From positions 1 to 64,000 of the IMG/VR virus record IMGVR_UViG_3300020411_004289: a DNA stretch of 64,000 bases; one strand, written 5' to 3'. This document shows, piece after piece, positions 7,560-57,920 of this stretch; the stretch's first letter is position 1; each line of letters begins with the position of its first letter. The stretch comes from a virus. The notes beneath the pieces were generated by a model that saw nothing but the letters and a program-made list of their open reading frames with translations, made no database searches and was not told the DNA's origin. The translations under genes were made by a program, and so were the position numbers.

Positions 7560-7582
7560 GAGTAAACATCGGGAGAATAAAA

Positions 7583-15618: not shown

Positions 15619-15622
15619 AAAG

Positions 15623-15994: not shown

Positions 15995-16007
15995 AAAAGG
16001 TAGAATA

Positions 16008-19258: not shown

Positions 19259-19261
19259 ATA

Positions 19262-20053: not shown

Positions 20054-20098
20054 GCTTGAAAAAACTAAAAAAAACTATTACTATTTTTGTGAGGAAAA

Positions 20099-20935: not shown

Positions 20936-20938
20936 ATT

Positions 20939-21532: not shown

Positions 21533-21547
21533 TACAGAGGTTTATCC

Positions 21548-24294: not shown

Positions 24295-24295
24295 C

Positions 24296-25169: not shown

Positions 25170-25171
25170 AC

Positions 25172-27465: not shown

Positions 27466-27467
27466 AA

Positions 27468-28517: not shown

Positions 28518-28540
28518 CCAAGTTAGGAGGTAACGTTACG

Positions 28541-30285: not shown

Positions 30286-30297
30286 AGAGGAAAAAAG

Positions 30298-31236: not shown

Positions 31237-31237
31237 C

Positions 31238-38534: not shown

Positions 38535-39044
38535 GTGGCAGATCAAACCCAAAATTCAAATAGAAAAAAGTACGATTTTTCGTCTGTTGGACAGACAATT
38601 GTTTCTAGCAAAAACTCTTTCATTGAAGATGAGTCTGCTCTAACCCCAGTAGGCATTCTTACACCTCTTCGTCTAGGAAACGGCAGCGACGGCCTATTTA
38701 AAATGAGCAAAGATATTATCACGCAAGTTCGGGATAATTTTAGAAACATGCTTGCTACTAACTGGGGCGATCGCTTAATGCTACATGATTTTGGCGCAAA
38801 TCTATCTGAACTAGCTTTTGAGCTAGGAACAGAGGTCGCTGATCTTGAAGCTGTAATGAGAATTAAAGCAACTACAGAAAAATATATGCCGTTCGTTACG
38901 CCAATCACATTCGAGTCTTTTAATGAGCCTTCGCCATATGCCGGAGGTGGTCTGGCATTAATAGGTGTCCGAGTGACTTATACAATTGACAGGGTAGGCG
39001 CTGAAGAATACGCAGATGAAGTAGTAATCTACACGGCAGGATAA
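38535..39044 (+). CDS. Baseplate wedge / sheath-initiator protein, GPW/gp25 family
   Basis: QVRDNFRNMLATNWGDRLMLHDFGANLSELAFE...KYMPFV. Confidence 0.85.
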   Translation: MADQTQNSNRKKYDFSSVGQTIVSSKNSFIEDESALTPVGILTPLRLGNGSDGLFKMSKDIITQVRDNFRNMLATNWGDRLMLHDFGANLSELAFELGTEVADLEAVMRIKATTEKYMPFVTPITFESFNEPSPYAGGGLALIGVRVTYTIDRVGAEEYADEVVIYTAG

Positions 39045-39045
39045 A

Positions 39046-40893
39046 ATGGCAACAAACATAAAAAAGAAAATAAAGAAGCTAAGAAACAGATCATTTCTTG
39101 CAAGAGATTTTGAGGCATTTAGAGCAAAGCTAATAGAAGATGCTAGAATTTATTTTCCAGATAAAATTCAAGACTTCTCAGAGTCGAGTTTGGGTGGCCT
39201 ATTAGTAGACATGGTTGCTTCTGTTGGTGACTCACTGTCATTCTATCTAGACCATGAATTTAGAGAATTAGACCCGCAGTCTGCAGTAGAGCTTGACAAT
39301 ATATTAATGCACCTTAGAAATGCAGGTGTAGATGCTTACGGTGCTTCTCCTGCGTCTGTTGATTTAAGATTTTCAATCGAGGTACCAGCTGAAAAAACAA
39401 GTACAGGCTATGCACCCAAGGTATCTGCTTTACCAGTCCTTTTGCAAGGGACAGTAACTCAGTCATTTGATGGAATAACATTTGTAACATTAGAAGATCT
39501 AAACTTTGCAGAAAAAGACATCAACGGAAATTTTCTAGCATCATATGAAGTAATAGAGACTAGAAATGACGGAACGCCAGTAAAATATGAAGTTTCTAGA
39601 ATAGCAGCAGCTTCTTCAGGCCTAGAACATACAGACACGTTTACAATATCAGACAATCATGTCGCTTTTAGAGAGCTTACTCTTTCTAAAGATAATGTTT
39701 CGACAATCTCTGATGTATTAGACGGAGATGGCAACGAGTATTATGAAGTATCAGCTTTAAGCCAGGACACTATTTTTAAAGCTGTTAACAATACAAACAG
39801 AAACGATGCTCTAGAAGTGCCAAGTAATTTAGAAATAACACCAGCCCCAAGAAGATTTGTGAAAAGATATAATCCCTCAACAAGAGTGACAACCATAAGG
39901 TTCGGGTCAGGTGATGCTGATGTATTAGATGATGATATTGTACCTGATCCTAGCGATCTTTCTTTGAGCTTGTATGGAAGAAAATACACACCAAGATTTT
40001 CAATTGATCCGAACTCGTTGCTAAAAACACAGACGTTAGGAATCTCTCCAAAAAATACAAGCATCAACATAAGATATCGATACGGAGGAGGTCTGTCACA
40101 TAACGTAGGTGCCGGATCAATCTCAGAGATAACTCAGCTAGAGCTTGAATTTAGAAATACACCTATTGCAAATGAAGCTCTAAGTGCGCGACAAAGCATT
40201 AAGGTTAAAAATCCGAGTCCGGCGATAGGTGGTACAAATGCACCGACTGTAGAAGATCTTAAGGCACTAATCACATCTGCAAGAAATAGTCAATCACGAG
40301 TAGTTACAAGAGAAGATTTACTAGCAAGAATATTTACTATGCCTTCAACATTTGGTCGAGTTTTTCGTGCCAGCATAGCAACTAATCCTGTAAACCCTCT
40401 TTCGATTATACTGTATCTAGTTTCTTTAGATAGAAATGGAAATATGACTGTAGCACCTGACCAGTTAAAGAAAAATTTAAGCACGTACTTAAATGAATTT
40501 AGACTAATATCAGATGCAATTGATATCTTGGACGCAAAAATCATAAACTTTGGCGTAAAGTACTCAGTAGTCTTGGCACCAAACGTCTCAAAGGTTCAGA
40601 CGATTCAATCCATTAATCAAAAAATTGCAAATGCAATGCAAAAAAAATATTTCCAAATAGATCAGCCCGTGATAATTGATGACATTACTAACATCATAAT
40701 CAACTCTGATTACGTAATTGCGCTTTCTGATTTAAGAATATTCCCTCGTGTAGGGAATATTGAGAACAGAGAATATTCTTCCGCCACGTTTAAGTTTGAG
40801 CAAAGCACTAAGAACGGCATTATTTTCGGCCCAGCTGGATCGATATTTGAGCTAAGATTTCCTGATGACGATATTATCGGGTCAGCAATGTGA
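39046..40893 (+). CDS. Baseplate wedge protein, T4 gp6 / P2 gpJ-like
   Basis: RDFEAFRAKL...DFSESSLGGLLVDM.A.VGD.LSFYLD, IRFGSG, YRYGGG, AIGG, QSRVVTREDL. Confidence 0.85.
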   Translation: MATNIKKKIKKLRNRSFLARDFEAFRAKLIEDARIYFPDKIQDFSESSLGGLLVDMVASVGDSLSFYLDHEFRELDPQSAVELDNILMHLRNAGVDAYGASPASVDLRFSIEVPAEKTSTGYAPKVSALPVLLQGTVTQSFDGITFVTLEDLNFAEKDINGNFLASYEVIETRNDGTPVKYEVSRIAAASSGLEHTDTFTISDNHVAFRELTLSKDNVSTISDVLDGDGNEYYEVSALSQDTIFKAVNNTNRNDALEVPSNLEITPAPRRFVKRYNPSTRVTTIRFGSGDADVLDDDIVPDPSDLSLSLYGRKYTPRFSIDPNSLLKTQTLGISPKNTSINIRYRYGGGLSHNVGAGSISEITQLELEFRNTPIANEALSARQSIKVKNPSPAIGGTNAPTVEDLKALITSARNSQSRVVTREDLLARIFTMPSTFGRVFRASIATNPVNPLSIILYLVSLDRNGNMTVAPDQLKKNLSTYLNEFRLISDAIDILDAKIINFGVKYSVVLAPNVSKVQTIQSINQKIANAMQKKYFQIDQPVIIDDITNIIINSDYVIALSDLRIFPRVGNIENREYSSATFKFEQSTKNGIIFGPAGSIFELRFPDDDIIGSAM

Positions 40894-40901: not shown

Positions 40902-42461
40902 ATGAAGATTTTTTGTACAGCAAGTAAAGACACTTACATTACTGATAAGATTATTGATAATCGGCTTCGAGCAGAAGATGCAAATGTAGGACGAGCTGGA
41001 ACGTTAGATGTCTTTCGCTTATGGAACGAAACAATAATAAACGGCTCTGGAAGTCAAAATGAGCTTTCAAGAGCACTAATAAAGTTCGACTATCAAAAAA
41101 TTCATGAATTGACGGCATCAAAGCTTGACTTATCAAACTTTACTGCAACGCTACGACTATTTGATATGAAGACAGGTCACGCTGTCCCTGCAAACTTTAA
41201 CCTATCAGTACTACCTCTTTCAAAAGCTTTTGATGAAGGGGCAGGTAGAGATATTGGCTCTTTTGGAGATTTGGACTCTTGCAACTTTATAACTTCTTCA
41301 ATAGATGGTACCGGTGCAGCAGTATTGTGGAACATGTCAGGTGCTAATGCTATAGGAGACCTAGGTGCTGCAGATTTAGATATTTTCGATAGGGCAAATT
41401 TTAATGATGGCGCCGGCTTATCGCTTATTGCTAAGTCACAAAATTTTATAAAAGGGACAGAGGACCTATCTGTCGATGTAACAAAAATAGTTTCAGCATC
41501 AGTAGCAGGACAAATTGAAAATCATGGGTTTAGAATTGCCTTTAGCGGAAGTGAAGAAACAGATTCAAAATCTAGGTTTGTCAAAAGATTTGCGTCTAGG
41601 CATGTTTCAAACTTATCTTTGAGGCCAAAAATAGAAATCGCATTTGATGAAAGTATTCAGGACAATCATAGTAATTTTTACTTTGATCTATCAGGGTCAT
41701 TATTTTTAAACTCATACGAAAGGTCTTCTGCAGCAAATTTAGTGTCTGGCAGCGCGCTGACACCTATTGCAGGAACTAACTCGCTAATGCTCAAGCTAAA
41801 AACAGGAAGCTTTGTTTATGCAACATCAGCTTCTCAATATTCTAGAGGAACGATTGATGCAAATGGAGAGAACTTTTTAACAGGTGTCTATTCTGTATCT
41901 TTTGCAATACCTTCAACAGATACTTCTTTAGTGGCGTCTGCTAGTGATTCAACTTTGGCAAATTGGGTTGCTACTAGTGGTTCTTTGACAATGGAGGAAT
42001 ATTGGTATTCTTTGGACGGCAATGTAGGGTTTCATACAGGAAGCATAAAGATAAACAGAGCTGCTAGGACATCAGGTAATTGGACTTCTAGAGAGCCACT
42101 AATACAAATAACCAATCTGAACCATGAGTACAGTACATCAGACGAAGTATCTTTAAGAATATTTGGTAGAGATCTTGTAAATGAGCAAAACCAGCCGGCA
42201 AAGATACCGATTAATTTAAAACCTGTAATATTTGATGAAGTCTATTATAGGGTACGAAATACCAAAGATGGCAAACTAATAATAGACTTTGGTGAAGACG
42301 ACAATTCAACTAGAGTGTCTACAGATAATGAAGGCATGTTCTTCGATTTTCATATGGATACCCTATATGCTAACAATGCGTATGAATTTGAATTTCTAGT
42401 AATTGACAGAGGTCAGCGTCATGTCGTAGCCAACAGAAGCCTTCAGTTTGTTGTGAGGTAA
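40902..42461 (+). CDS. Baseplate-associated structural protein (DNRLRE-domain-like N-terminus)
   Basis: KDTYI, SRALIKFD, FDEGAG, NHGFRI...F.SR...RPKIEI; located in the baseplate operon. Confidence 0.6.
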   Translation: MKIFCTASKDTYITDKIIDNRLRAEDANVGRAGTLDVFRLWNETIINGSGSQNELSRALIKFDYQKIHELTASKLDLSNFTATLRLFDMKTGHAVPANFNLSVLPLSKAFDEGAGRDIGSFGDLDSCNFITSSIDGTGAAVLWNMSGANAIGDLGAADLDIFDRANFNDGAGLSLIAKSQNFIKGTEDLSVDVTKIVSASVAGQIENHGFRIAFSGSEETDSKSRFVKRFASRHVSNLSLRPKIEIAFDESIQDNHSNFYFDLSGSLFLNSYERSSAANLVSGSALTPIAGTNSLMLKLKTGSFVYATSASQYSRGTIDANGENFLTGVYSVSFAIPSTDTSLVASASDSTLANWVATSGSLTMEEYWYSLDGNVGFHTGSIKINRAARTSGNWTSREPLIQITNLNHEYSTSDEVSLRIFGRDLVNEQNQPAKIPINLKPVIFDEVYYRVRNTKDGKLIIDFGEDDNSTRVSTDNEGMFFDFHMDTLYANNAYEFEFLVIDRGQRHVVANRSLQFVVR

Positions 42462-42464
42462 TTT

Positions 42465-45400
42465 GTGGCCAGAGACTCTAATACATTTACCAAAACAATT
42501 CTTTTTAAACCTAGCTCACTAAGGTCGCTTAGGGATGGTTCAACTAGAGTTGAAAACATTACCTTGGGTGGAAATAAAGAAAAAACGCAGGGTGAAGCAA
42601 ACCTCATAAGCACTTCAAGCTTTAGGTATGATCCTGCAGGATTTCCTCTTAAAAGCACTCAGCAGCTAAACGTAGACTGGTCAAAGCTAGAAAACCATAC
42701 ATTCTTTAATTCAGCCCAAGTAAAGGTTCAAACTGCGTTTGACAAGATCATAAATCGATTTCCATTTGACGGAACAAAGTCTGAGTATATAGAGTTTAGA
42801 GATAACTTAACTGGTTTTGACAAGTACATTCTAGATACATTTCCTAAAAACTTAGGAAGTCTTAAATTTGATAGGGCATATAATAATGCGCTTAGAGTAC
42901 AAGACTATCAAGGTGCAGGGTTAATATCTGGCAAAAAAGGCTCGACAGGACAAGCTGTTCTAGACTTTTCATATATGCCATTTAGCATAGAAACCCATAT
43001 TTTTATCCCATCCGGATCAATAAATGACAACGAGGTAGTTTTACAAAAGATATCTGGGTCAAGTAGCGGATTAACCTTAGCAGTAACATCTTCTGCATAT
43101 GAAACTAGTCCGCATGGCGAAGCAACGCTATGGGCGTATTTAAGCTCAGGATCCACAGCAATAAGTGCTAGTCTAGGAATAAAAAAAGGTGTGTTCAATC
43201 ATGTCGCATTAGTGTACGACAGAAATGACACAGGAAAACTATTTATTTATGGAAACGGCAATGTACCTAACGAGTCGTCGAAAGCGGCTGTATTTAATGA
43301 CTATGATTTTATAGAATCTTTAACTACGATTGGTAGTGGGACTGTTCATCAAGTTGAAAATATTAATTTCACACCTGTACAAAATCTTTCAGGCGCTCTT
43401 GATGAATTAAGATGGTTTCATAAAACTAGGAATAGAAATCAAATACTAAGCTTTAAAGATCGAAGTATATTTGCTAACAATCAAGACGATCTTCGACTAT
43501 ACTTTAGGTTTAACGAGCCGTCTGGCAGTTTTGGAACCAGCTCCACTACAGGAAATGAAGATCTTGTCTTAGACTATAGTGGAAACGGTCTTCATACTAA
43601 GATTTCAAATTTTAATATGTCACTAAGAGAGACAGGATCTCTTCCAGTTGCTATGTCTCAAGAAGATCCTGCCCTATCTCCTATTCTTTTTCCGTCGTAT
43701 AGACAGGTCGCAGACTTAGGCGTAAAAATGCTTCTTTCCGGAAGCCAATACGACTATAATAATCCCAATCTGATAACAAAATTAATACCCAAACATTATC
43801 TTCTGGAAGCCTCTGAAAGAGAAGGTATGGAAAATGAGTGGGGTGACATTGGTGAGTCTCCGGGATATTATACAGATCAACCCGGTGGCTCAAAAATGAG
43901 ATCACCTCAAATAATTGCATCTCTTTTATACATGTGGGCAGAGTCATTTGATGAAATGAAAATGTTTATAGATGAATTTGGAAGAGCACTTAATGTAGAT
44001 TATCTCACAGATCAAACAATAAGCGATCAGCTTTTACCCTTTTTAGCAAGATATTACGGTCTAAATTTGCCAAACGCATACGCTGATGCATCAATGGCAC
44101 AGCTTTTGGATAGGCAAGATGTAAGAATGGATAATGTTTTGGCTGTCAAGGGATTACAGGGTGTCCAAAATGTAATTTGGAGGCGTGTACTGTCAGGATT
44201 GCCTGAAGTTATAAAATCAAAAGGCACGCGATACTCAATTGAAGCGCTTTTTAGAAACATGGGAATTAATCCTGACGGATCTTTTAGAATAAGAGAGTAT
44301 GGGGGCTCCAGGACAAAGTCCATAAGTGATACATTTGAAAAAAGAAGTGAGATCGCATCTATCTTAGATTTCTCAGGGTCAAAGTCTTCAGGAGGTGTAA
44401 TCGACGGTTCTGGAAAAAGCAGCAACAGACCTTTGATACAATCTTCTTACCTGTCTTCTTCAAGATTAGAGCCGGGTAAACCTTTATCAAAAATCCGGTA
44501 TGGTGACTATGTTTCTGGAGTATCACCCTATTCTGGAGACGGACTATATACTAGCGGCTCCTGGACTGTAGAGGGGACATTTAAGCTAGAAAATCCACTA
44601 AAAAATCCATTAACGCAAAGCTTAATGAGAATGCAAACAACAGGCTCTAGAGCTTCAGGTGTAGCAAACAATTGGCTGATTTTTAATACTGTAGCAACTG
44701 CTTTACTTACTTCTTCTAATTCTCCGGGAACATTATCTCTGTACGGTAGGGTAGGAAGTGGATCAAGCGAGACTTTAAAACTAACCATGACCGGTGTGAA
44801 TGTTTTCGATGGAAACAAGTGGCATGTATCATTTGGGCGCTTAAGAAATGATGAAATCGGATCATATGTTTCTTCAAGCTATTTTCTTAGAGCCGGTAGG
44901 ATGGGAACAAACTCAGTTTTAGAATTTTATACAACGTCTTCTTACTATAACGATCAAGGCGATACTATTCTAAACAGAGTGTCATCATCGAACAATGCTT
45001 CTGGGTCATTTATTACGATCGGAAGTCAAAGCCTCATGTATGATACATCTACTACCTCCGGAGGCGGTTTTCTAAATGAAGTCTCGGACAGCAAAGTAAA
45101 ATATGTTAACTTCACCGGAAAATGTGCAGGAATAAGATTCTTCTCAAAAGGTTTGAGTGAAAAAGAGACGCTGCAGCACGTAAGAAACTTTAAATCTCTA
45201 GGAGTTGAAAACCCACATGTAAACTTCAACTTCAACACGTCAGATGCAGGTTCTTTTGAAAGACTAAGGTTGAATTTGTCAATTGATCAACCTGTAACAA
45301 AATCAAATGCCGCCGGAAACGTACAGATATTTGACTTTAGTCAAAATAATAATCATGGTCTAGGTACCGGCTTTGAAACAAATGTACAGATAATTCGTCC

Positions 45401-45992
45401 TGAAAGATATGATTATATGATTCTCTCCCCGAGGTTTGAACTAGCGACTGATCCTAATAAGATACGAATACGAAGCTTTATTCAGGCTGAAAATGTTAGA
45501 TCAAACGGAATGAGTGATTCTTCTTACGCACCTCTATATAGAATTCCAGAAAACGAAAAACCAAAAGATGACAGGCGTTTAGCAATTGAAGTGTCGTCTG
45601 TACAAGCACTTAACGAAGACATCATGAATATATTCTCAACTCTAGATTCACTAGACAATGCTATTGGGAATCCTGAACTAGTGTTTTCACAAGAATATAA
45701 AAGCTTGCGCCATCTTAGAAAGATTTACTTCAATAGACTAGATGACAAAATGTCACTTAAGAAATTCTTTGAATTCTTCAAGTGGTTCGATCAAACAATT
45801 GGCGATATCTTAGAAGAAGTAATTCCAAGCACTACAAAATATATGGGAACTAATTTTGTGATAGAAAGTCACGCGCTAGAAAGAGCTAAGTTTCCTTATA
45901 AGTACAGCGACATGTATGTCGGGATTCTAGATAGAAGAGAAGCTTCTGTAATATTTTTACAGCAATTTCTAGGAAGACTAAGGAAGTTTTAA
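42465..45992 (+). CDS. Baseplate wedge protein (gp7/gpI-like segment) with LamG/ConA domains (1175 aa)
   Basis: FNHVALVYD...GALDELRWF and LRLYFRFNE (LamG); LLPFLARYYG...IKSKGTRYSIEALFRNMG (gpI-like). Confidence 0.7.
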   Translation: MARDSNTFTKTILFKPSSLRSLRDGSTRVENITLGGNKEKTQGEANLISTSSFRYDPAGFPLKSTQQLNVDWSKLENHTFFNSAQVKVQTAFDKIINRFPFDGTKSEYIEFRDNLTGFDKYILDTFPKNLGSLKFDRAYNNALRVQDYQGAGLISGKKGSTGQAVLDFSYMPFSIETHIFIPSGSINDNEVVLQKISGSSSGLTLAVTSSAYETSPHGEATLWAYLSSGSTAISASLGIKKGVFNHVALVYDRNDTGKLFIYGNGNVPNESSKAAVFNDYDFIESLTTIGSGTVHQVENINFTPVQNLSGALDELRWFHKTRNRNQILSFKDRSIFANNQDDLRLYFRFNEPSGSFGTSSTTGNEDLVLDYSGNGLHTKISNFNMSLRETGSLPVAMSQEDPALSPILFPSYRQVADLGVKMLLSGSQYDYNNPNLITKLIPKHYLLEASEREGMENEWGDIGESPGYYTDQPGGSKMRSPQIIASLLYMWAESFDEMKMFIDEFGRALNVDYLTDQTISDQLLPFLARYYGLNLPNAYADASMAQLLDRQDVRMDNVLAVKGLQGVQNVIWRRVLSGLPEVIKSKGTRYSIEALFRNMGINPDGSFRIREYGGSRTKSISDTFEKRSEIASILDFSGSKSSGGVIDGSGKSSNRPLIQSSYLSSSRLEPGKPLSKIRYGDYVSGVSPYSGDGLYTSGSWTVEGTFKLENPLKNPLTQSLMRMQTTGSRASGVANNWLIFNTVATALLTSSNSPGTLSLYGRVGSGSSETLKLTMTGVNVFDGNKWHVSFGRLRNDEIGSYVSSSYFLRAGRMGTNSVLEFYTTSSYYNDQGDTILNRVSSSNNASGSFITIGSQSLMYDTSTTSGGGFLNEVSDSKVKYVNFTGKCAGIRFFSKGLSEKETLQHVRNFKSLGVENPHVNFNFNTSDAGSFERLRLNLSIDQPVTKSNAAGNVQIFDFSQNNNHGLGTGFETNVQIIRPERYDYMILSPRFELATDPNKIRIRSFIQAENVRSNGMSDSSYAPLYRIPENEKPKDDRRLAIEVSSVQALNEDIMNIFSTLDSLDNAIGNPELVFSQEYKSLRHLRKIYFNRLDDKMSLKKFFEFFKWFDQTIGDILEEVIPSTTKYMGTNFVIESHALERAKFPYKYSDMYVGILDRREASVIFLQQFLGRLRKF

Positions 45993-45993
45993 G

Positions 45994-47886
45994 ATGGGAA
46001 AATATCGATATGCAAGATCTAATGGGCAATTTTTAGATTCTCGGCTTAATAATTTTGCAAAAGAAAATACAATACAAAATTTTAGATCTGACCAGTCTTA
46101 TGACTTATCAAAAGATTTTGTAACAGGTACCAACCCTAGCGAAAACAGTTTCATTCTAGACAAAAAAAACTTAAATGGGTATGAATCAAAAGCAAGCCTG
46201 TTAGCTTGGTGGAGGCCAGGAAACAAAGATGACGACACATCAGCAGTCAAGGATAGCTCAGGGAATAATGCTATTCTCACCCCGCCTGCAGTATCAAAAA
46301 CACCTACGCTTGATGTAGGGGACACACCTTCTAAGTTCATCTCTAATAATTCATTTCTTTTTGATGGGTCTGATGATTGTATTGCTTCTTCTGCATCAAG
46401 TCGCCTAGTCTTAAGCGACGGAACCAAGGATGAACCTTTTAGCGTTTCGATGTGGTTAAAAGCTAGTTCTTTCGGCTCAGGTCTCGGAGTCCCCATAGGA
46501 TCGTGTGATGCTGATAACACTTCCAATAGACAGTGGCTTATTCAAGTCAACTCCTCCGGAAACTTGAAAGTGGTACTCTATGACAACTCCGCCGGAGCTT
46601 ATGTGTGGAAAACGACAAATTCAGGTGTCTTAAACATTGACACATGGGAACACGTCGTACTTACATATGATGGTCGCTCCGGTACATCTGCGACAAACGG
46701 TGTAAAAGTATATGTGAATTTAGAGGAGTCCACGTATTACGCTCCCAGCGCAATTGGAACTTATTCTGCGATGGATGGAATAAGTCAAGCAAAAATAACA
46801 GTAGGTGCTCATATCCCGTCTTCTACATGGTGCTTTGCAGGCAGCATAGCAGATGTCGCCATATGGAACAAAGTGCTATCATCTAATGAGATAGAAAACA
46901 TCCATAATGTAAAGAGTGCCGGCGCTTATAGATTGGTAAGAGACTTTAGCAGAGTGTCTCCTGATAACGATACAAGAATTTTAGGTATTGCAACTGAAAG
47001 AAAAGGTTTTAATACAACAGGGTTCAAACCTGACATAATGAATCAGTTCGTACAAGGGATTAACGTAAAAAGCTTTGATCAGCTGTTAAACTACACAGCG
47101 ACCAGAATCAGACCCAATAGTAGCTTTGTCAAGACACTACGTGGCAAGGATATTTCTAGAACAACTTTTGACGAGACAGTCGCAACTACAGCAATCACAT
47201 CTGGGAGTCATACTTCACATGTTTTCCTGGGAGGCGAGGGAAGGCTGTCAGATAGACTTACGAACGAAAGAGAGTGGAGAGATTTAGGGCAGACAGCAAT
47301 TTATGACACCCCGGGTGCATTTGAAGATACACTTGATCTAGATCCAACTGCCATTGTTTCCAGGCAACCAGAAGACTTAATTTTACCATATCAGATGGTC
47401 GCCCAAACAAGTGCAGAACTCTTGGACGGAACCATAGAGCCATTAACCATCAGAAGTATTATCGATCGATCTTCAATAGAGGGCCCATTTTACTCTCATA
47501 CATTTAGAGCAGATCTAGGAGGCCAGACTGACGCGTTCAGGAGATCTTACGTAATTACTGACGGTGTAAGCATGCATGATATTAGAACACCTGAAGGAGC
47601 ATCTCCTTTTTTAGACTCGGTTGAAAATTTAGGTAAAACTGATATGCCCGGAGCGTTCTCTGACTATAAGTCTGTAATTGATCCTTACGTTGATTATGCA
47701 AACGATAGAGATAAAGAGTACACAATTAACAGTGTTTCATCTACAATTTCTGCTGTACTAGTTCATAGCTCTTCTTGGAAAGATAGTGACGATCGAACAC
47801 ATGAAAAAATGGCCGCACACGGATTTCAGTATGACAATAACCCAATTGGAATTGACTCCATTGCATATGGAGGTTTAAAGAAGTAA
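45994..47886 (+). CDS. Structural protein with a LamG-like jelly-roll domain
   Basis: FDGSDD, FSVSMWLK, WEHVVLTYDG, FAGSIADVAIWNKVLSSNEI. Confidence 0.75.
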   Translation: MGKYRYARSNGQFLDSRLNNFAKENTIQNFRSDQSYDLSKDFVTGTNPSENSFILDKKNLNGYESKASLLAWWRPGNKDDDTSAVKDSSGNNAILTPPAVSKTPTLDVGDTPSKFISNNSFLFDGSDDCIASSASSRLVLSDGTKDEPFSVSMWLKASSFGSGLGVPIGSCDADNTSNRQWLIQVNSSGNLKVVLYDNSAGAYVWKTTNSGVLNIDTWEHVVLTYDGRSGTSATNGVKVYVNLEESTYYAPSAIGTYSAMDGISQAKITVGAHIPSSTWCFAGSIADVAIWNKVLSSNEIENIHNVKSAGAYRLVRDFSRVSPDNDTRILGIATERKGFNTTGFKPDIMNQFVQGINVKSFDQLLNYTATRIRPNSSFVKTLRGKDISRTTFDETVATTAITSGSHTSHVFLGGEGRLSDRLTNEREWRDLGQTAIYDTPGAFEDTLDLDPTAIVSRQPEDLILPYQMVAQTSAELLDGTIEPLTIRSIIDRSSIEGPFYSHTFRADLGGQTDAFRRSYVITDGVSMHDIRTPEGASPFLDSVENLGKTDMPGAFSDYKSVIDPYVDYANDRDKEYTINSVSSTISAVLVHSSSWKDSDDRTHEKMAAHGFQYDNNPIGIDSIAYGGLKK

Positions 47887-47887
47887 C

Positions 47888-50800
47888 ATGCCGAGACTAG
47901 GAAAAAAGATCAAAGTATACGATTTAAACCTTCAGGCTCAGCGTAGTCCGATAGGTGTTTCTGCTATTCCTGGAATAACATTTCCAGCAACAACCATGAA
48001 GTGTGGTGTTGACTCTGACCTAAAATCCAATGTTATAGTTTTCTCTTTAGGCTCAAGCTCTCCTGCTTCTCCTGATCGTTGGATTCAGCTAGACGGTCCT
48101 TTCTTAGGTCCGGTAACACTGACATATACAGCAGTGAGAGGCGATTATCCTGGAAAAATAGCTGTAGACGGAGTCCCCGAGGATCTTGCAGCCCCTGAAC
48201 AAGTCGGCGACGACGTTCTTTTAGTTCAAACTTCGAGAGACGGAATTTACTGGAAAACTGTGAGGACAGGAACGGTTGCCGAGTTAAGCAATGAAGTATA
48301 CACGACTATTTCTGTTAATGTTTATGGAGATTCTGGATATAAAATAAGAATAGCTCAGAAAAATCAATTCAATGCTTCAGAGGATGAATATGCCATTTCG
48401 GTGATAACAGTTTCACAAGGAGAGATTTCAGGCTATCTAAATAACCCGCCGCGAATTTTACTACAAGATAACGACAATAGAACTGGAAGCTATCCAACAG
48501 TAGCCCGCACAGGAGATCCCAACTTTACAGGCAGAGCAAATGTGAGGTTTAATGATCAACAAACAGTAGAATACTTTAGCTCATATCCAGAAGCTGAAAT
48601 TACTTTTCTTGATATTCCCCTAGATGCTCATTCTATCTCTTTGACAGGTTCAGCAGAAGATCCATCAGAGAACGTAAAAAAGCTTTTTGAGTTTCAAAAA
48701 GGCGTACTTCAATATTATAACGAATCCATCCTCGTAGACATTAAAGGAAAACAAACACCACGATCAGTGGCATATGCTTTTGCTAAGACAGTCAACAGCG
48801 CTTCTATGGGCATAAAGGCAACCCCAGTTGGAGAAAAAGTAAAACTAAGACAACACAGGCCTTTAATTCCAAGCAACGGGCTAAACATAACAACATCCAG
48901 CTATCCTGCTTTCTTCCTCCCTGCTTCAATAAAACAATTTACACAGCACGGCCCGGAAAATTATGCGTACCCTATGATTTTACCTGTGCCCGGAAGAAAT
49001 GACTATGCCAGTGGATCGACTCATGTAAATGCACTAGTCGCTTCACCTAATATCACTGGATCTTTAACTGCCCCGGCGATTATGGGCACATCAAATAGCG
49101 GCCCGGGAATACATTTTACCCCGGGAGAAAACATAGGACCGTTTGATGAGTCCAGGATTTACATCGACAATGACCTAAGTTTCTATACTGAAGGGACCAC
49201 AGTCAATGGCACAACTTTGCCAGGATTTGGTGAAAGACTAGGTTCTAAGGTAAGTCTATCTTTTGACATATCAACTAATGAACCCTGTTCTGTGTATTTT
49301 TCAACTGGAACAGTTTCACCTGGAGGTACACATGCATCAAGGGCAGATGCTCTAGCCGCAGGGGTTAATTCCGGGATAGCGTATTATAATTTTGCGGAAA
49401 GCAAGTGGGAAATTGTAGGAGATCTACTTACCGGCAGTAATGTAGATATTTTTAATTCAAATCCACAGACAGTTGCAGATTCAATGCTAGCGATAATGCC
49501 CTCTCAGTATGACTATTGGTCCTATCATACAGCACCCTTGACTAATATGCTTAAGCATCAAGGGTCACCCACTGAGTTCGCAGGATTCCCTCTAGCCAGC
49601 AAGTTTGACCCTTCAGAAGCTCAGCTACTTGATATGTCAGACTATATTACAGCTCCATTCTTATTAGAAAAATTAGAGCTGACAGTTTCTGCATCTTATG
49701 CTATGACACAGGTGATGACGGACATAAATGGTGTCCATAATGCTTCGTTTATGCTACTTTTACAAAGAGATGCAGTGCCTTCTGGTTCGTTTACTTCTGA
49801 GCTAACATTGCTAAAAAATAACGGGTCAAACACTCTGACAGATATGACGTGGCTCGCGCCTAAGAAAAAAACATTTGAGACTCATAAAGATAGAAAAATT
49901 ATCTGGTATGGTAGAATAGGAAGATACCTCGAATTCGATCACCCAACCCAGACTTATAGCTCTTTAGAAGAATTTAGAATTAGGGCCCCACATGTTTTTG
50001 CAGCATGCGATTTGTGGATACCACAGCTTAATCCTTACGGCAATAATCAGTATCCTTCCACTGGTTCTTTCACACTAAGAGGTTCTCCTAATACACCTAT
50101 CGGATGTGGTGTGTCAAATAATGTGGTGCGACCTAGAGGTACGCGTACCTCCGCGCACGCGGATATTCCGGAGTATGCAGTCATAGGAAGAAAGACAGGA
50201 GGAAGAGATCTTATAAATATTGCAGACGGACGTTCTTTTATAAGCTCTATTGCAGGCGCTAAAGAGGTCGGCACACATTATGTAGGCTATGAAGCTAATT
50301 CTGCCGGCAGCAGATTTGTACCACTCTATGAAAAGGATTCATCTGAATCTCCTTTTCTTTTGCTCCCAACAGACAAGTTAATGCTTGTGCATGTCAATCA
50401 AAAAATGCCTAATCCCAACGACGACGTACTTACCTGGTCGAAAGGCGAAGACCAAGTAGTTCAGAAAAGATCAACACTTCTCCCGGGCAAATCTAAACTA
50501 ACTCTTTTTGGCTCAATGGTGCGTGAAGGAAAAGCAGCAAATACGACCACACTAAATCAGCCACTCACGTCTGACGCAATACACGAGGATGTTAGAGATG
50601 ATATATCGCCCTTAGGTGAGTCTCTATGCCTAGATCAGTGGCAAGTAGAGCCTGTGTCTACATATTACAAGTCCTATCTAGACAATATTGTCACGGGGTC
50701 AATGTATAATCGAAATAACCCTACTCAGTTTATAAACCCACACACACCGCACGTTAGAAAGTCCCAAGGAACCACCGCAGGAACTGGTATCGTTTCTGGC

Positions 50801-52189
50801 CGTGTAGGGAGCCTCCTTTCTTCCGGAAGCATACAAAGATTTGTAAGGGCTGTAGACACAGAGCAGATATTTTACGACTCCACAGTTCCAAATTTGCAGG
50901 AAGTTGTTGACTTCTATCAAATGATGACACTCAATATCCTCGGTGGGTTTAATTATTTATTAATGTCACTCGATACAGAAGAGTGGTCGCAAGGCTGGTA
51001 CATCCACGAAGCCTCCGCTGGCAGCTTAAGATTTAATAGAAGCGGGATGTTCGAACATATAGGGCATTTAAAAAGATCTTTATCACCATCTACTGCGATA
51101 AAAAGAACTGATGGTGTTTCCGGACAAAACGCAAGGATCGACGGCTTATATCTCTTTTCTTCAGGAACACTACCGATTTACCCGGCCTCCATGTGGACGG
51201 GTCTGATGGAGACAGGGGTCAATTCCCAATTCTTTTTAATCGACTTCAAAGACGGTCAACCATCTACGGCCCTTGCGGGCTCGAGCCCGGGTTACCGGCC
51301 GGTCATGACACCGCAGTCAAAATATGGCTCGTCCTACATGCTTAAAATGCTCTGTGGTATTGGAGATTTTCATGGTATGCCTTTAAATCAAGCCGCTGAA
51401 GCATCACCTCGTCGAGGGCCGGCAGCGGCGACCAGTGTCAATTTTGGGCCCGACCCAGGAGATTGGCCTCTCGACGGCTCCGGAGCCTCAGACGTAACGT
51501 TTTATCTAGGACCCGGGTCAACGAACCCGGAAAAATATATATGTGCAGGATCTAATGAAGGCCCCGGTAGCGGCTATCAAGGTAAATTTGCTTTCGACTC
51601 CGATCCATCTAAAACCGCACGCAATTTTAGAGAAGTTGTTAATACATACTCAGAGCACCTTCGCGTCTTTTACGGCAACGCAGGCGAAGGAATTACAGTA
51701 ACCTTAGCTTCAGGTTCAGTTACAGATTCACTTTCTATGGTTGGGGAGAAGGCATGGGATCAGTCAGGTCCCTCAGGGACCTCTAACTGGGCCGGCACAT
51801 ACGGCGGAGAAACCTTCAGTTTGGCTGCTGACACCCTCCTATTGAGAGGTTTTAAGTACGGCCTATATAACGCTGTTCCTTCATCACCCACTGCTGTCTT
51901 TAGAAGCGATACATACGGACAATTTAGAGACATGTTAGAGCCCAGGCTTTTTAGTGCATTTTTCAATAAGAAGAAGCTAGAGCGTCCTCCAGTAGTGATA
52001 ACTTTTACTAGTAGAGCAGGTGAAAGAGGTGTGGCACCTGAAGAAACAAACTCACAAAATTTATCAAATCATGCAACTTCTTCCGTACCGTTTCGAGATG
52101 GTGTTTCCAGAGACAGAAAAGATATTCAGCCAGATCTATTACCTAGAGTTGAACTCGAGATGTTTGACTTGAAGCTCGGTAGCAGCTAG
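47888..52189 (+). CDS. Large multidomain virion protein (1433 aa)
   Basis: Long ORF in the structural operon, S/T/G/P-rich, with an N-terminal beta-sandwich insert. Confidence 0.6.
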   Translation: MPRLGKKIKVYDLNLQAQRSPIGVSAIPGITFPATTMKCGVDSDLKSNVIVFSLGSSSPASPDRWIQLDGPFLGPVTLTYTAVRGDYPGKIAVDGVPEDLAAPEQVGDDVLLVQTSRDGIYWKTVRTGTVAELSNEVYTTISVNVYGDSGYKIRIAQKNQFNASEDEYAISVITVSQGEISGYLNNPPRILLQDNDNRTGSYPTVARTGDPNFTGRANVRFNDQQTVEYFSSYPEAEITFLDIPLDAHSISLTGSAEDPSENVKKLFEFQKGVLQYYNESILVDIKGKQTPRSVAYAFAKTVNSASMGIKATPVGEKVKLRQHRPLIPSNGLNITTSSYPAFFLPASIKQFTQHGPENYAYPMILPVPGRNDYASGSTHVNALVASPNITGSLTAPAIMGTSNSGPGIHFTPGENIGPFDESRIYIDNDLSFYTEGTTVNGTTLPGFGERLGSKVSLSFDISTNEPCSVYFSTGTVSPGGTHASRADALAAGVNSGIAYYNFAESKWEIVGDLLTGSNVDIFNSNPQTVADSMLAIMPSQYDYWSYHTAPLTNMLKHQGSPTEFAGFPLASKFDPSEAQLLDMSDYITAPFLLEKLELTVSASYAMTQVMTDINGVHNASFMLLLQRDAVPSGSFTSELTLLKNNGSNTLTDMTWLAPKKKTFETHKDRKIIWYGRIGRYLEFDHPTQTYSSLEEFRIRAPHVFAACDLWIPQLNPYGNNQYPSTGSFTLRGSPNTPIGCGVSNNVVRPRGTRTSAHADIPEYAVIGRKTGGRDLINIADGRSFISSIAGAKEVGTHYVGYEANSAGSRFVPLYEKDSSESPFLLLPTDKLMLVHVNQKMPNPNDDVLTWSKGEDQVVQKRSTLLPGKSKLTLFGSMVREGKAANTTTLNQPLTSDAIHEDVRDDISPLGESLCLDQWQVEPVSTYYKSYLDNIVTGSMYNRNNPTQFINPHTPHVRKSQGTTAGTGIVSGRVGSLLSSGSIQRFVRAVDTEQIFYDSTVPNLQEVVDFYQMMTLNILGGFNYLLMSLDTEEWSQGWYIHEASAGSLRFNRSGMFEHIGHLKRSLSPSTAIKRTDGVSGQNARIDGLYLFSSGTLPIYPASMWTGLMETGVNSQFFLIDFKDGQPSTALAGSSPGYRPVMTPQSKYGSSYMLKMLCGIGDFHGMPLNQAAEASPRRGPAAATSVNFGPDPGDWPLDGSGASDVTFYLGPGSTNPEKYICAGSNEGPGSGYQGKFAFDSDPSKTARNFREVVNTYSEHLRVFYGNAGEGITVTLASGSVTDSLSMVGEKAWDQSGPSGTSNWAGTYGGETFSLAADTLLLRGFKYGLYNAVPSSPTAVFRSDTYGQFRDMLEPRLFSAFFNKKKLERPPVVITFTSRAGERGVAPEETNSQNLSNHATSSVPFRDGVSRDRKDIQPDLLPRVELEMFDLKLGSS

Positions 52190-54099: not shown

Positions 54100-55053
54100 A
54101 TGGCTGGTATTCTAGACAACAAAGAAAGAATGATTGATTTCATAATGACTGAAGAAGGCAAGCGCCAGGCTGCCAGTGGTCAAATGAAAATAGAGTATGC
54201 TGCTTTTACTGACATGCATACTTTTTATGCAGCTTCTGGCACTCTAATGCCCAACATTGCTGAAGATGCCTCTGGTAGAATATTTTTTGAGGCTACAAAT
54301 CGATTTCAAGATGTAATAGTTCCCGAACTGGAAGCAGGCATGTCGCTGCGACCGTTTAGGACAGCAGACTTTGACTTTGACGGAAAAGTAATAGCATCCG
54401 GTACGTTTAGGGTCGGTTATGAGAAAAAGGCAAATATCATAACCGGTTCAAAAATAACAAATATTTCTGACAGAAGCTTAAGTGGCATTACTAGCAATTT
54501 TAATGATCTAAGGGTGTTGGGAACTAAAGATCCTTTTGCTACGACCTCCGGATTTGAAACTTCTATCACAACGGGTAGTTTTTATTTTTGGGACAAGATG
54601 CCGATGGGAAGATCATATGATGGATCACCAACTGCACTAGAAGATTGCGAAAGTCTTTTCGCAGATAGACGATTTTCACATTTTTCTAATTTCTCTTATT
54701 TGCCGCCTGTTAACAAACCATCAGAAGGCGCACCAAATGGAAAACCTTTGGGCATGTATCCAAAACTAAACGAAACTCCGATAATGACATTTCAAGACTT
54801 GGAAAAGTCTTTAAAAGAAAAGCAAAAAGTAGAGATTGATTTTACTGATACATCTAGAGAAAATAATCTAATAGGGCAGATATTCGAATATGATAGTACA
54901 GGAATAGACAAGCTCTCTATTATTGACTTTGGAGAGTTTGATGATGACGATCCTTTTAGTCGCGGCAAAAGAGTCTTTTTTGTTGGAAAAATTCTTAGAG
55001 ATGCCAACGGCGCAGAAACGTTTATGAATATATTCACAGTGGTATTTGACTAA
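54100..55053 (+). CDS. Structural protein with a tail-collar-like N-terminus
   Basis: GILDNKERMIDFIMTEEGKRQAASGQMKIEYAAFTD resembles the N-terminus of the ORF at 63403. Confidence 0.55.
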   Translation: MAGILDNKERMIDFIMTEEGKRQAASGQMKIEYAAFTDMHTFYAASGTLMPNIAEDASGRIFFEATNRFQDVIVPELEAGMSLRPFRTADFDFDGKVIASGTFRVGYEKKANIITGSKITNISDRSLSGITSNFNDLRVLGTKDPFATTSGFETSITTGSFYFWDKMPMGRSYDGSPTALEDCESLFADRRFSHFSNFSYLPPVNKPSEGAPNGKPLGMYPKLNETPIMTFQDLEKSLKEKQKVEIDFTDTSRENNLIGQIFEYDSTGIDKLSIIDFGEFDDDDPFSRGKRVFFVGKILRDANGAETFMNIFTVVFD

Positions 55054-57905
55054 TGGCTAGATATGAACCAAGACAAGAACACGCGGTCGCCTTTAAAGAC
55101 ATTGCTGCATTTACAGAAGGCTCGTCTAATTTAGAGCTAATTGACATTATTAATGATGCGTCTAAAGAAAAGATATCTGACAACTATATTAATGCGCCAG
55201 GGGCTTATGTTTATGAGCTTGACATAACAGTTGATCAACAGAAGGTAATTGATCATGAAGTGCTAGGGTTTAAAGTTGAAATATTCTCAAAAAATCCTAA
55301 CATAAGATTTAATGAAGATTACTCAGTATCAAGAGCTACAATGGCTAAAGAGCGAAAAAATAGGCTGAGGGAGTTTATAGAGACTAGACAGCCTGACCCA
55401 GTTTTAGAGTTTGATATTGATCTAAATGTGCCATTGCCTCCACAAAACTTTAATTTTACCACAGCAGCATTAAAAGCTGTGCCAAAAATATTGCCTGTTT
55501 TTCTTAATAGTGAACCTCAAACTAGTGGTAAAATGGTCACAGCCCCTATTGTAGCAATGCCCATAATCACGCCAGCCCTAGGAATTAAAGCAACACCTAA
55601 AAGCTCACCTAGCACAAATCTAATAAAAGGAAATACATTTGCAAATATTGCTAAGCTAAGCATTACACACGACAAAAAAGATCCGATATCATTGATGGCA
55701 ACACCCAAGCCATTTTACCCGACACTTGCAGCTAAAACTAGTTTTGCATCTATCGATGTCTTTTCTCCACCCCCAAAAGATTATAGTCAAATTGAGCGAA
55801 TTTCTTTGGACAATATATACACACGAAGATCGCTTATAGAAGAAAGACAGGCACTAAAACCACAACAAGAAGATGAAAGTAAAGGTGCATACAAACTGGC
55901 AAATATTGTCAGTAACAATACATTCTTAAAGCGTGAAATAACTTTAGGCCACAAAGCAGAGATAAAAACGACAGCGTTTACAGTTAAAAGAGAAATAGAG
56001 ATTCCAAAGTTAGACTTAGGTATGAGATCTAGCTTTTATGTAAGCATTACACCTATCTTAAGAGAGAGTAACGCTATTGTAAGAGTAATTAAGACACCAA
56101 AAAGTCATACTTTTTCTGTTTCTCATAGGCGTCAAGTCGAAGATATAATGCTTCCTGTTTATCCTCCAGAAATAAGTTTGGTAATGAACAAGCGAGGAAT
56201 AGTTGTATTAAAAATAAAACAGGCAGACCCTTCTGCTACATTAATAGATGTTTTTCGAAAAGTAGTGTCACCCAGAAAAGATGGAATATCTTCTTCTAGA
56301 GCCATAGCTTCAATAGAGTCAGAAGCATCGAGTCCTTCTCAAATTGTGTCTGATTTTGATTCAGAGAATATTTTCCCAAACTCAGTAATATATCGAGCAA
56401 CGACTAGGTCTCCTATAGGGTTAGATGGTCCATCTTCTTCTCTAGTTATTGATAGTCATCATAACATAAATGCTCCGACAGCAAAAGAAGACCCAAATGC
56501 ATTATCAATAATTGCTGTTAACGAAAATGAACATATAAAAATAGATGTTGAAAGAATTCCACAAAATATCTTGGGATTAAAGCTTTTAAGAGAAGAAATT
56601 GATGAGAGTGGATCACTTTCTAAAAGAGTAACCACAGTTCCAATGTCAAATGGTAAAACTCTATATGATACTAAAAGAGGCATAAAAAAGCTAACCTATT
56701 TTGACAAAACAACAGATCTCAATAAGCGATATCGATATTTTTGCACGTTTAGGCCGCGCCTTGGAAATGAGTATCTTTCAGAAGAAGATGAGCATATTAT
56801 TAGAAAAATGCCTACCAAACCTCTTCCTGTAGAAGTTTCTATACAAAATCAACAGATTACTACCGACGACTCCGGACAGTTTATTATGTCTATAGATTTG
56901 ATTAGTATTCCTAAGGCAGAAGGGGTTGATTTTCTCTTGACATTACTAGAGCGCGCCGGCGTAAGCCAAGCATTTATATCATCAATTAAAGACCAAAGGG
57001 CAGAACTATCTCAGTTGGCTGCTTTTATTGTCGAAAGAGTTAATAGAAACACAGGGAAAAGAGTTTCTTTTGGTCAGGTAGGTCCTGGAACTTTTTCAGA
57101 CGATCCAGAAACCAGAGAAAGGTTAGGTATCCCGGCGCCGTCCAGCAACAATAGATACACTTACTTTTTTAAGCTCTGCATGCGGCCACCGCAAGCTTTC
57201 CTAAAGTCTTTGCTTACAAGTTTTCCTTCAGGTAAAATACCGGGTGTAGATGACACTACAGCATTGGCAAAAAAATTCCTAGGTGCATTTGCTGCACAAA
57301 CAGGTGCATTATATTCAGACAAGGAAATGTCAGACTTTTCTGTAGGCGATAACTTTAGAGCAGGGGAAACCGGTATAACACTGCATACTGATATTCAAAC
57401 CCCTAAACCTTTACCAAAACCTGTCGGTCTTAGAATTGCTAGAAGGTCTCGAAAGCGTGGCATTTTATTAAAGTGGGAATCTGATACTAATGATATTCGA
57501 CAAGTTGATCATGTTCTTGTGTTTGTTCTGATGCAGGATGGAACTGAGATTTTGTTGGGAACTAGGCCAGGCTCTTATTCCGGCGGCTGGTATTTTAAAG
57601 ATACAAAGTATGCACCCCAAGTAGGAAAAAAGAAATACTATGTAAAGTTTGTATATAACGATCTCACAGTTTCAGCTCCCAGTAATTCAGTCGTTTTTGA
57701 AATATTTGCCTCTCTTCCGCCTGCTTTTTTTAATTTTAAATTTAAGCCAAGTATTTTAGGGGTAGTAAATCCAACCGCTAAAAAACAAGATCAGTTAAAA
57801 ATGCCAGCGACCGGCTTAAAGCTTAAATTGCCTGATTTGTCTAAAAAAGTTAATGCATCCGGCTGGAACATAAACCCAGGCAAGTTTAAAAAGAAGCTTT
57901 ATTAA
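55053..57905 (+). CDS. Large hypothetical protein with FN3/Ig-like segments (950 aa)
   Basis: TYFDKT...RYRY, PVGLR...ILLKWE, YYVKFVY...SAPSNSV. Confidence 0.55.
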   Translation: MARYEPRQEHAVAFKDIAAFTEGSSNLELIDIINDASKEKISDNYINAPGAYVYELDITVDQQKVIDHEVLGFKVEIFSKNPNIRFNEDYSVSRATMAKERKNRLREFIETRQPDPVLEFDIDLNVPLPPQNFNFTTAALKAVPKILPVFLNSEPQTSGKMVTAPIVAMPIITPALGIKATPKSSPSTNLIKGNTFANIAKLSITHDKKDPISLMATPKPFYPTLAAKTSFASIDVFSPPPKDYSQIERISLDNIYTRRSLIEERQALKPQQEDESKGAYKLANIVSNNTFLKREITLGHKAEIKTTAFTVKREIEIPKLDLGMRSSFYVSITPILRESNAIVRVIKTPKSHTFSVSHRRQVEDIMLPVYPPEISLVMNKRGIVVLKIKQADPSATLIDVFRKVVSPRKDGISSSRAIASIESEASSPSQIVSDFDSENIFPNSVIYRATTRSPIGLDGPSSSLVIDSHHNINAPTAKEDPNALSIIAVNENEHIKIDVERIPQNILGLKLLREEIDESGSLSKRVTTVPMSNGKTLYDTKRGIKKLTYFDKTTDLNKRYRYFCTFRPRLGNEYLSEEDEHIIRKMPTKPLPVEVSIQNQQITTDDSGQFIMSIDLISIPKAEGVDFLLTLLERAGVSQAFISSIKDQRAELSQLAAFIVERVNRNTGKRVSFGQVGPGTFSDDPETRERLGIPAPSSNNRYTYFFKLCMRPPQAFLKSLLTSFPSGKIPGVDDTTALAKKFLGAFAAQTGALYSDKEMSDFSVGDNFRAGETGITLHTDIQTPKPLPKPVGLRIARRSRKRGILLKWESDTNDIRQVDHVLVFVLMQDGTEILLGTRPGSYSGGWYFKDTKYAPQVGKKKYYVKFVYNDLTVSAPSNSVVFEIFASLPPAFFNFKFKPSILGVVNPTAKKQDQLKMPATGLKLKLPDLSKKVNASGWNINPGKFKKKLY

Positions 57906-57920
57906 AGGTGTAGAACTAAC

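Follow-up and report, generated by a model that had tools for sequence, protein, structure and literature searches.

To our knowledge, phage-encoded glycosylation of virions has so far been documented chemically only for a few mycobacteriophages, besides the giant algal viruses. The chlorovirus capsid protein is glycosylated by the virus's own enzymes (PMC9614988), and the virion glycans of mycobacteriophages are described, in a paper that summarises the original work, as being located on the C-terminal tails of capsid and tail-tube subunits (PMC12619734, summarising Freeman et al. 2023, Cell Host Microbe). The same paper deals with the "moraphages", T4-like jumbo phages from aquatic habitats whose genomes reach 307 kb and encode gp6, gp25, a sheath and four core glycosyltransferase orthogroups (PMC12619734). 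Here, we analysed an uncultured marine T4-like phage represented by the 106,087-bp IMG/VR record IMGVR_UViG_3300020411_004289 (CheckV completeness 21%). The first 64 kb of this record are referred to as the window and the phage as the window phage; all genes of the window lie on the + strand. The tripeptide Ser/Thr-Gly-Ser, written [ST]GS in the following, is 5-10 times too frequent in outer tail and baseplate proteins of this phage, and we consider it together with two adjacent glycosyltransferase genes of the window, GT4a and GT4b.

Excess of [ST]GS in baseplate and tail proteins

The analysis centres on five genes:

32567..33826, + strand: GT4a, GT4-family glycosyltransferase (PF00534), candidate writer
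33823..34986, + strand: GT4b, second GT4-family glycosyltransferase (PF00534), candidate partner or writer, overlapping GT4a by 4 nt
40902..42461, + strand: P519, baseplate protein right after the gp6-like gene, multi-domain beta-sandwich; 7 [ST]GS vs 0.73 expected (z 7.0)
42465..45992, + strand: P1175, peripheral baseplate protein with a ConA-like domain (Laminin_G_3 match); 11 [ST]GS vs 2.03 expected (z 6.6)
47888..52189, + strand: P1433, large outer baseplate or fibre protein; 10 [ST]GS vs 2.34 expected (z 5.1)

The three tail proteins had first attracted attention in an inspection of the DNA by eye (hereafter the sequence-only reading), whose counts of 7, 11 and 10 turned out to be exact. 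The number of sites in P519 was matched by none of 1000 shuffles. Because the motif had been picked after inspection, all 8000 tripeptides were scored, pooled over P519, P1175 and P1433. Under these conditions SGS ranked first (18 vs 3.15 expected, Bonferroni p 6e-5) and TGS second (10 vs 1.95 expected). The excess was also retained when shuffling was confined to windows of 20, 40 or 80 residues (z still 8.6-9.1), and the order of the residues is decisive: SGS occurs 18 times vs 5 for SSG and 6 for GSS, and TGS 10 times vs 3-5 for each of the other five orders. The shuffles together with the scoring of all 8000 tripeptides rule out chance or overall composition, and the shuffles within 20-80 residues rule out local S/G-rich patches. 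The enrichment proposed in the sequence-only reading consequently survives the controls for S/T/G composition, local context and multiple testing.

Besides, the codons used at the sites are variable, which indicates selection at the protein level and rules out a DNA-level motif such as GATC. An all-against-all BLASTP comparison of the enriched proteins detected no paralogy except among the fibre and among the sheath paralogues, so that hidden paralogy is ruled out outside these two groups. This is in line with the earlier view that shared ancestry does not explain the motif, as no homology is detected among the enriched proteins and individual sites come and go at a steady density. In its extended form, the motif has hydrophobic residues at positions -2, -1 and +1.

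The same record continues beyond the window with SbcCD, terminase, portal, major capsid protein (MCP), a neck protein and two sheath paralogues. Further enriched proteins are encoded in this part at 64131-65414 (6 [ST]GS vs 0.8 expected), at 65427-67898 (11 vs 1.0 expected) and by the sheath paralogue at 89133-92312 (6 vs 1.1 expected); portal, terminase, SbcCD and a 2213-aa protein have 0 or 1 site each.

Occurrence of the motif across phage genomes

In a whole-genome test, we scored every open reading frame (ORF) of at least 200 aa and called an ORF enriched at p<1e-3. Observed/expected ratios and numbers of enriched ORFs were as follows:

Window phage: observed/expected 2.75; 6 ORFs with p<1e-3
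Flavobacterium phage immuto: 2.55; 5 ORFs
Microcystis phage Mel-JY01: 2.61; 7 ORFs
Rhodothermus phage RM378: 2.60; 1 ORF
LR756508: 1.36; 0 ORFs
T4: 0.53; 0 ORFs
Syn1: 1.47; 0 ORFs
HTVC008M: 1.73; 0 ORFs
KVP40: 1.34; 0 ORFs
phiKZ: 0.94; 0 ORFs

A general property of T4-like tails is rejected by the lack of any enriched protein in T4, Syn1, HTVC008M, KVP40 and phiKZ. Judged from these genomes, the enrichment characterises a single deep T4-like clade, which comprises the window lineage, immuto, Mel-JY01 and RM378. In the three cultured members, the enriched proteins are encoded after gp6 in the cluster of baseplate and fibre genes, and in immuto the sheath is enriched as well. The window phage, immuto and RM378 also have a flank rule in common, with 50-68% hydrophobic residues at -1/+1 vs a background of 32-40%. 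A megablast search with 20 kb of the window against cultured phages gave no match, and Pfam and PHROGs assigned a name to almost none of the motif-rich proteins.

The densest motif carriers that we saw are two neighbouring proteins of immuto: an S/T/G-rich protein of 1053 aa (97614-100775; 26 [ST]GS vs 5.9 expected) and one of 211 aa (96965-97600; 8 vs 1.5 expected).

Conservation and turnover of sites among relatives

The totals for relatives cover about 80 IMG/VR relatives. Their P519 orthologues contain 472 sites vs 67 expected, 46 orthologues of P1175 contain 526 vs 96.7 expected, and the relatives of P1433 are enriched 3.5-fold. In two relatives at 56-69% identity, none of the seven P519 sites is missing and most of those in P1175 are retained, S and T being exchanged in places and some sites gained or lost; 120 P519 homologues down to 48% identity still carry a mean of 5.5 sites vs 0.77 expected. 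Four columns of the P519 alignment are almost always [ST]G[ST]; the P1175 alignment has 12 conserved motif columns and one invariant SGS (36/36). At conserved sites, S and T interchange at both flanks, and the more variable columns of both proteins switch among KGD, KGE, TGN and similar triplets.

Between deep lineages, the positions of the sites in P519-like and P1175-like proteins do not match, with alignments that at 23-30% identity are too unreliable for tracing single sites. The unmatched positions suggest that the density is reselected in each lineage and not inherited site by site. On the evidence of these alignments, selection on the motif is ongoing rather than inherited.

The gp6-like wedge protein upstream of P519 is strongly depleted, its 82 orthologues having 6 sites in total vs 43.5 expected (counts that are not phylogenetically independent). 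This depletion (window 39046-40893, orthologues L002-L088) is the reverse of what is seen in the downstream neighbours. As a further observation, five of the seven P519 sites fall into a central segment (residues ~255-395) that is missing from the shorter P519-like proteins (369-420 aa) of immuto, Mel-JY01 and LR756508, and which looks like a lineage-specific inserted domain.

Structural context of the sites

The AlphaFold2 (AF2) model of P519 (mean predicted local distance difference test, pLDDT, 79) consists of beta-sandwich domains arranged in a chain, for which Foldseek returned carbohydrate-binding modules (CBM) and Ig/macroglobulin-like sandwiches. With the weaker model of P1175 included (pLDDT 63), 14 of the 18 sites that could be mapped are found where strands end, in hairpin turns or in loops between strands. 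Three of the 18 are canonical two-residue hairpins, about five stand just before a strand and four just after one. The remaining sites are found in loops (2), inside a helix (1), inside a strand (1) and in low-confidence regions (2), and there is one helix N-cap too. A single secondary-structure element common to all 18 sites was not found, a statement that is soft at a pLDDT of 63 for P1175.

The sheath proteins of the phages that carry GT4a/b fit into this picture. Outside the C-terminal core they have 21 sites vs 4.7 expected, and inside the core none; the corresponding non-core domains of T4 gp18 face outward. The sequence-only reading, which expected exposed turns, is supported in that the sites lie mostly at the strand ends and loops of beta-sandwiches and, in the sheath, only in non-core parts. 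The two sheath genes of the window phage are tandem paralogues (record 89133-95422; L007:5133-11422) of 1059 and 1022 aa that are 33% identical and have very large non-core regions; LR756508 likewise has two sheath genes.

These positions also fit a purely structural origin, in which [ST]GS would be a favoured strand-end or tight-turn sequence that stays unmodified, while the GT4 pair does something unrelated. Gly is suited to a turn and the hydroxyl side chains can cap backbone groups, the 14 of 18 sites at strand ends, turns and loops include the three canonical hairpins, the motif alternates at variable columns with KGD, KGE and TGN, which are classic triplets of turns, and hydrophobic flanks are what one expects between strands. 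However, the contexts are mixed, as they comprise hairpins, strand starts, strand ends, a helix N-cap and sites inside a helix and inside a strand. Moreover, there is no excess in T4 gp7, gp10, gp12 and gp18, in the ConA-like protein at 45994-47886 or in cyanophage and phiKZ tails, and the homologous tail proteins of LR756508 are motif-free, so the folds do not need the motif. We therefore regard this explanation as rather unlikely.

A further point against a structural origin comes from the fibres: non-homologous and fast-evolving, they keep acquiring the motif in four lineages that differ in host and temperature, which argues for a shared factor acting in trans. Such a factor would best explain the motif from the sequences at hand, with GT4a/GT4b as the leading candidate.

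The GT4a/GT4b pair and the absence of GT4b from LR756508

Both enzymes score above the PF00534 gathering cut-off of 26.4 (GT4a 47.3 bits, GT4b 42.0 bits). The E286-x7-E294 motif of GT4a is invariant in 21 sequences and E273-x7-E281 of GT4b in 23, and E-x7-E is kept in the homologues of immuto, Mel-JY01 and LR756508. Among the relatives with enough upstream flank, GT4a is present in 29/29 at 57-76% identity, being the best conserved gene of the block, and all 29 show the order (PD-(D/E)XK)-GT4a-GT4b-p243-p604-gp25-gp6-P519-P1175. Among 50,697 cultured or complete phage records, GT4a homologues were found in only seven, all of them from this clade: immuto (four), Mel-JY01, LR756508 and RM378. 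The gp6 type has the same distribution minus RM378. GT4b orthologues adjoin GT4a in immuto and Mel-JY01, and in RM378 the neighbour of GT4a is a diverged GT4b-like protein without the second Glu. In the PDB, GT4a has its best relative in chlorovirus B736L (3OY2), which matches over almost the full length (E 1.5e-10).

A model of the GT4a-GT4b complex reached a score of 0.90, vs 0.00 for the best of three controls. The mark applied is reached by 58 of 80 solved complexes and by 2 of 110 mismatched pairs, benchmark counts that are only rough here as alignments of our own were used. The runs share at least 97% of the contacts, the partner has a pLDDT of at least 92, and the C-terminal tail of GT4a packs on GT4b residues 242-249. 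A heterodimer of GT4a and GT4b is supported by this model but not demonstrated.

In LR756508, GT4b was found nowhere in the 484 kb, and GT4a is intact; the phage also keeps p243, gp25, gp6, P1175-like and p427-like genes and shows no enrichment. When the 20 window-phage genes common to immuto and Mel-JY01 were compared with LR756508, GT4b was the only one unmatched in both runs; the PD-(D/E)XK nuclease had a weak match (E 1e-8) in one run and none in the other. Trees of TerL and of TerL+MCP place LR756508 as sister to immuto and Mel-JY01 (97/99) and thereby inside the clade. A grouping of window phage, immuto and Mel-JY01 that leaves out LR756508 is rejected by the approximately unbiased (AU) test (p 0.0096); this group was named after the first tree had been seen. 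With LR756508 nested in the clade, the absence of GT4b and the absence of the motif coincide on one derived branch. The link between motif and glycosyltransferase content that the sequence-only reading had envisaged holds in this respect, since enrichment is missing from the only clade member in which the transferase pair is incomplete. Its idea that neighbouring transferases write the motif stands for the conserved GT4 pair (32567-34986) as a candidate and fails for the transferases of the 25-kb island described below.

The evidence for a factor in trans does not by itself name the factor, and GT4a/b might only share the distribution of some other clade-specific reader such as an assembly chaperone, a kinase or other modifying enzyme, or a binding partner in the virion. 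Only 20 genes are comparable across the clade, p243 and other unknown genes stand in the same conserved block, and the window holds a nucleotidyltransferase-kinase fusion at 16728-18296. Against these candidates, LR756508 has p243 too, neither the kinase fusion nor the other island enzymes are matched by a homologue in the remaining motif-rich phages, and GT4b alone among the 20 shared genes went unmatched in LR756508 in both runs. A different reader consequently has a minor share of the probability in our estimate, and the GT4 pair is kept as the candidate reader in the following.

Several observations concern the genes around the pair and the genomes used in the comparison. The nuclease-GT4a-GT4b order (window 31706-34986) is kept in immuto (48030-51883) and, with one inserted gene and at a distance from the tail genes, in Mel-JY01 (81375-86302); nuclease and GT4 pair may form one unit. 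GT4a of Mel-JY01 (L098:19998-21489) is annotated as two coding sequences (CDSs) of 573 and 909 nt, which could reflect a frameshift, a sequencing error or a real split. The portal homologue of LR756508 (145763-149923) is part of a 1386-aa frame of about twice the usual length, which may be a fusion or contain an inserted element. In the record of the window phage, a single 1044-aa ORF (69451-72585; L006:5451-8585) has SbcD-like N-terminal and SbcC-like C-terminal matches, which suggests a fused nuclease.

Neighbouring proteins and the glycan and phosphonate island

The other features of the window that enter the comparison are:

1..9334, + strand: four fibre-like proteins, S/T/G-rich; 18 [ST]GS vs 8.7 expected, ~2-fold, partly by paralogy
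9558..31675, + strand: glycan and phosphonate island, 25 kb (Pfam annotation); no link to the motif
38535..39044, + strand: gp25-like wedge protein (weak PF04965 match, phrog_43); 0 [ST]GS sites
39046..40893, + strand: gp6-like inner baseplate wedge protein (phrog_6, phrog_219); 0 [ST]GS sites
45994-47886, + strand: ConA-like protein, unenriched; 1 [ST]GS vs 1.13 expected
54100..55053, + strand: p317, small tail protein with a mild excess; 2 [ST]GS vs 0.30 expected, relatives 9 vs 1.2
55053..63349, + strand: three large proteins of unknown family, no excess; 1 [ST]GS vs 1.9 expected, no PHROG match

Downstream of the island, the genes follow in the order PD-(D/E)XK nuclease, GT4a, GT4b, p243, p604, gp25-like and gp6-like, and then large proteins without known families. 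The range from 40902 to 52189 had been put forward as a whole for the motif, which applies to P519, P1175 and P1433 and not to the ConA-like protein between them. For the fibre-like proteins, the repeated occurrence seen by eye amounts to the ~2-fold excess given above, of which three sites share one paralogous context, F[YF]V-SGS-VG, with paralogy detected by BLAST. The motif was rightly called scarce at 55053-63349. The island enzymes, where it had been described as rare, do have a low count, which equals expectation (4 [ST]GS vs 4.3), S/T/G being merely scarce there.

According to Pfam, the island encodes GT2s, a GT4, methyltransferases, a UDP-glucose dehydrogenase, epimerases and phosphonate genes, and the nucleotidyltransferase-kinase fusion mentioned above is part of it. 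The phosphonate cassette (22981-27465) consists of a Fom1-like cytidylyltransferase-PepM fusion, two Ppd (ThDP decarboxylase) halves, an Fe-ADH and a B12 radical SAM protein. It represents a fosfomycin-like series of domains and is preceded by a sulfatase-fold protein at 21548-22984.

With a cytidylyltransferase (CyTase)-PepM fusion, Ppd, Fe-ADH, B12 radical SAM protein and sulfatase-fold transferase situated between fibre and baseplate genes, the island could be thought to produce a phosphonate-bearing group for attachment to [ST]GS, or to provide another glycan for this acceptor. The complete 284-kb relative G001, which has GT4a, GT4b and two GT2s, lacks PepM, and its homologues of P519, P1175 and P1433 are still enriched. 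PepM was found in only one of four long relatives, and the tested island enzymes (GT2s, kinase fusion, phosphonate genes) have no homologues in immuto, Mel-JY01, RM378 and LR756508. By this comparison of genomes, the 25-kb island is not needed for the motif, and G001 together with the missing homologues speaks against a general link of the motif to the island or to phosphonate. We thus consider this explanation highly improbable, and the phosphonylation variant of the sequence-only reading is not supported, as PepM is missing from a complete motif-rich relative and the island enzymes from the clade phages.

T4-type DNA glucosylation, in which a hydroxymethyl-pyrimidine pathway (dCMP or dUMP hydroxymethylase) accompanies the glycosyltransferase, was considered as well. 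PF00303, the family of thymidylate synthases and hydroxymethylases, is absent from G001, Mel-JY01 and RM378, with T4 as positive control. In a DNA digest of immuto, liquid chromatography-UV-mass spectrometry (LC-UV-MS) gave dA, dC, dT and fdPreQ1 in place of dG, and a glycosylated nucleoside is not mentioned (bioRxiv 10.1101/2023.04.13.536721). Both the missing PF00303 and the immuto nucleoside data weaken this candidate.

Discussion

Our data can be combined into the following model. Phi-[ST]-G-S-Phi (Phi = hydrophobic) would be a short tag under continuing selection in outward-facing tail proteins, namely those of the baseplate periphery, the fibres and the insertion domains of the sheath. 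Its reader would be the clade-specific retaining pair of GT4a and GT4b, acting as one heterodimer in the host cytoplasm. The pair would O-glycosylate Ser/Thr of the tag where it lies in loops or at the ends of strands in beta-sandwich domains, which would give the assembled tail a sugar coat. That the tag is an O-glycosylation site read by a GT4a/GT4b complex is, in our judgement, an even bet. The more specific version, in which hydrophobic-flanked [ST]-G-S is a true sequon, is read by a heterodimeric phage-specific GT4 and decorates folded tail proteins at strand-end loops, we place slightly short of even. From sequence data we infer that the GT4 pair would act on proteins, that the tag would be its acceptor and that the coat might serve in protection, solubility or adhesion.

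Several points weigh against this model. They concern i) the enzymes, as sugars and lipids are the usual substrates of GT4 enzymes and the sequence points to no protein acceptor, and as the partner in RM378 is without the second Glu, yet this phage has a moderate motif excess; ii) the location of the pair, which in Mel-JY01, immuto and RM378 has replication and nuclease genes nearby instead of tail genes; iii) the sites themselves, as the alternation with KGD, KGE and TGN at variable columns is typical of beta-turns and the P1175 model is of low confidence (pLDDT 63); iv) the co-variation, which comes from one clade and one loss event in which other genes could have gone together with GT4b, in a comparison that covers only 106 kb of the window phage genome; and v) the sugar coat on the virion, which is a prediction from genes and sequences.

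If the GT4 pair indeed reads the tag, [ST]GS would be the first protein-glycosylation sequon to be defined for a phage, and it would be common to a deep clade whose hosts are Bacteroidota, Cyanobacteria, Rhodothermus and abundant uncultured marine organisms. Sugar-coated tails would then be common in nature. In addition, the outer surface of virions could be mapped from sequence, so that outward-facing and inner proteins are told apart in uncultured phages, and enzyme and tag would be a compact set with which glycosylated proteins could be engineered in bacteria. A direct test of the hypothesis is possible, since the cultured phages immuto, Mel-JY01 and RM378 carry both pair and motif, and LR756508 provides a natural negative case without GT4b. 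Our literature search found no Ser-Gly-Ser O-glycosylation sequon, no relevant phage glycoproteomics and no such work on Mel-JY01.

Comparison with known systems

The Aah/TibC heptosyltransferases are cytoplasmic O-glycosyltransferases that act on the beta-helix repeats of autotransporters and reportedly recognise a short strand-loop-strand element. A short structural element in place of a long linear sequon is also what our sites resemble, which we take as a lead only; unlike here, the enzymes belong to another family and their substrates are repeats of one homologous unit.

The O-GlcNAc transferase GtfA/GtfB (PDB 4PQG, 5E9T/5E9U), which modifies serine-rich-repeat adhesins of Gram-positive bacteria, offers a closer parallel in gene arrangement, with two adjacent GT4-fold genes, a heterocomplex that is predicted in our case, and Ser/Thr-rich substrates in the cytoplasm. 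In contrast, the sequence similarity is marginal (E 0.02-0.08) and restricted to the nucleotide-sugar motif, and Pfam gives only PF00534, PF13692 and PF20706 for GT4a and GT4b, without the DUF1975 insertion of GtfA. The acceptors differ as well, with isolated tripeptides in folded domains here and long serine-rich repeats there. Furthermore, GT4b keeps E-x7-E, whereas GtfB is non-catalytic. The marginal PDB match, the missing DUF1975 and a GT4b that looks catalytic speak against a specific relationship to GtfA/GtfB, which leaves a functional analogy.

Chlorovirus PBCV-1 contributes the best PDB relative of GT4a, B736L, for which we know of no acceptor. This virus differs in having a eukaryotic host and glycans that are N-linked at atypical sequons.

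Judged by their description, the moraphages may be the group to which the window lineage belongs: the complete relative G001 has 284 kb and encodes GT4a, GT4b and two GT2s. The paper that deals with them mentions neither the tripeptide nor a protein acceptor (PMC12619734).

The nearest phage precedent is, by analogy, the glycosylation of mycobacteriophage virions. There, too, the phages encode their own glycosyltransferases, which are proposed to act on their own structural proteins in the host cytoplasm and to yield a sugar-coated virion. The sites and the enzymes differ: the candidate tripeptides of the window phage are not located at C-termini, they are scattered through the domains of baseplate, fibres and sheath insertions, and the putative writer is a clade-specific GT4 pair in phages whose hosts belong to different phyla.

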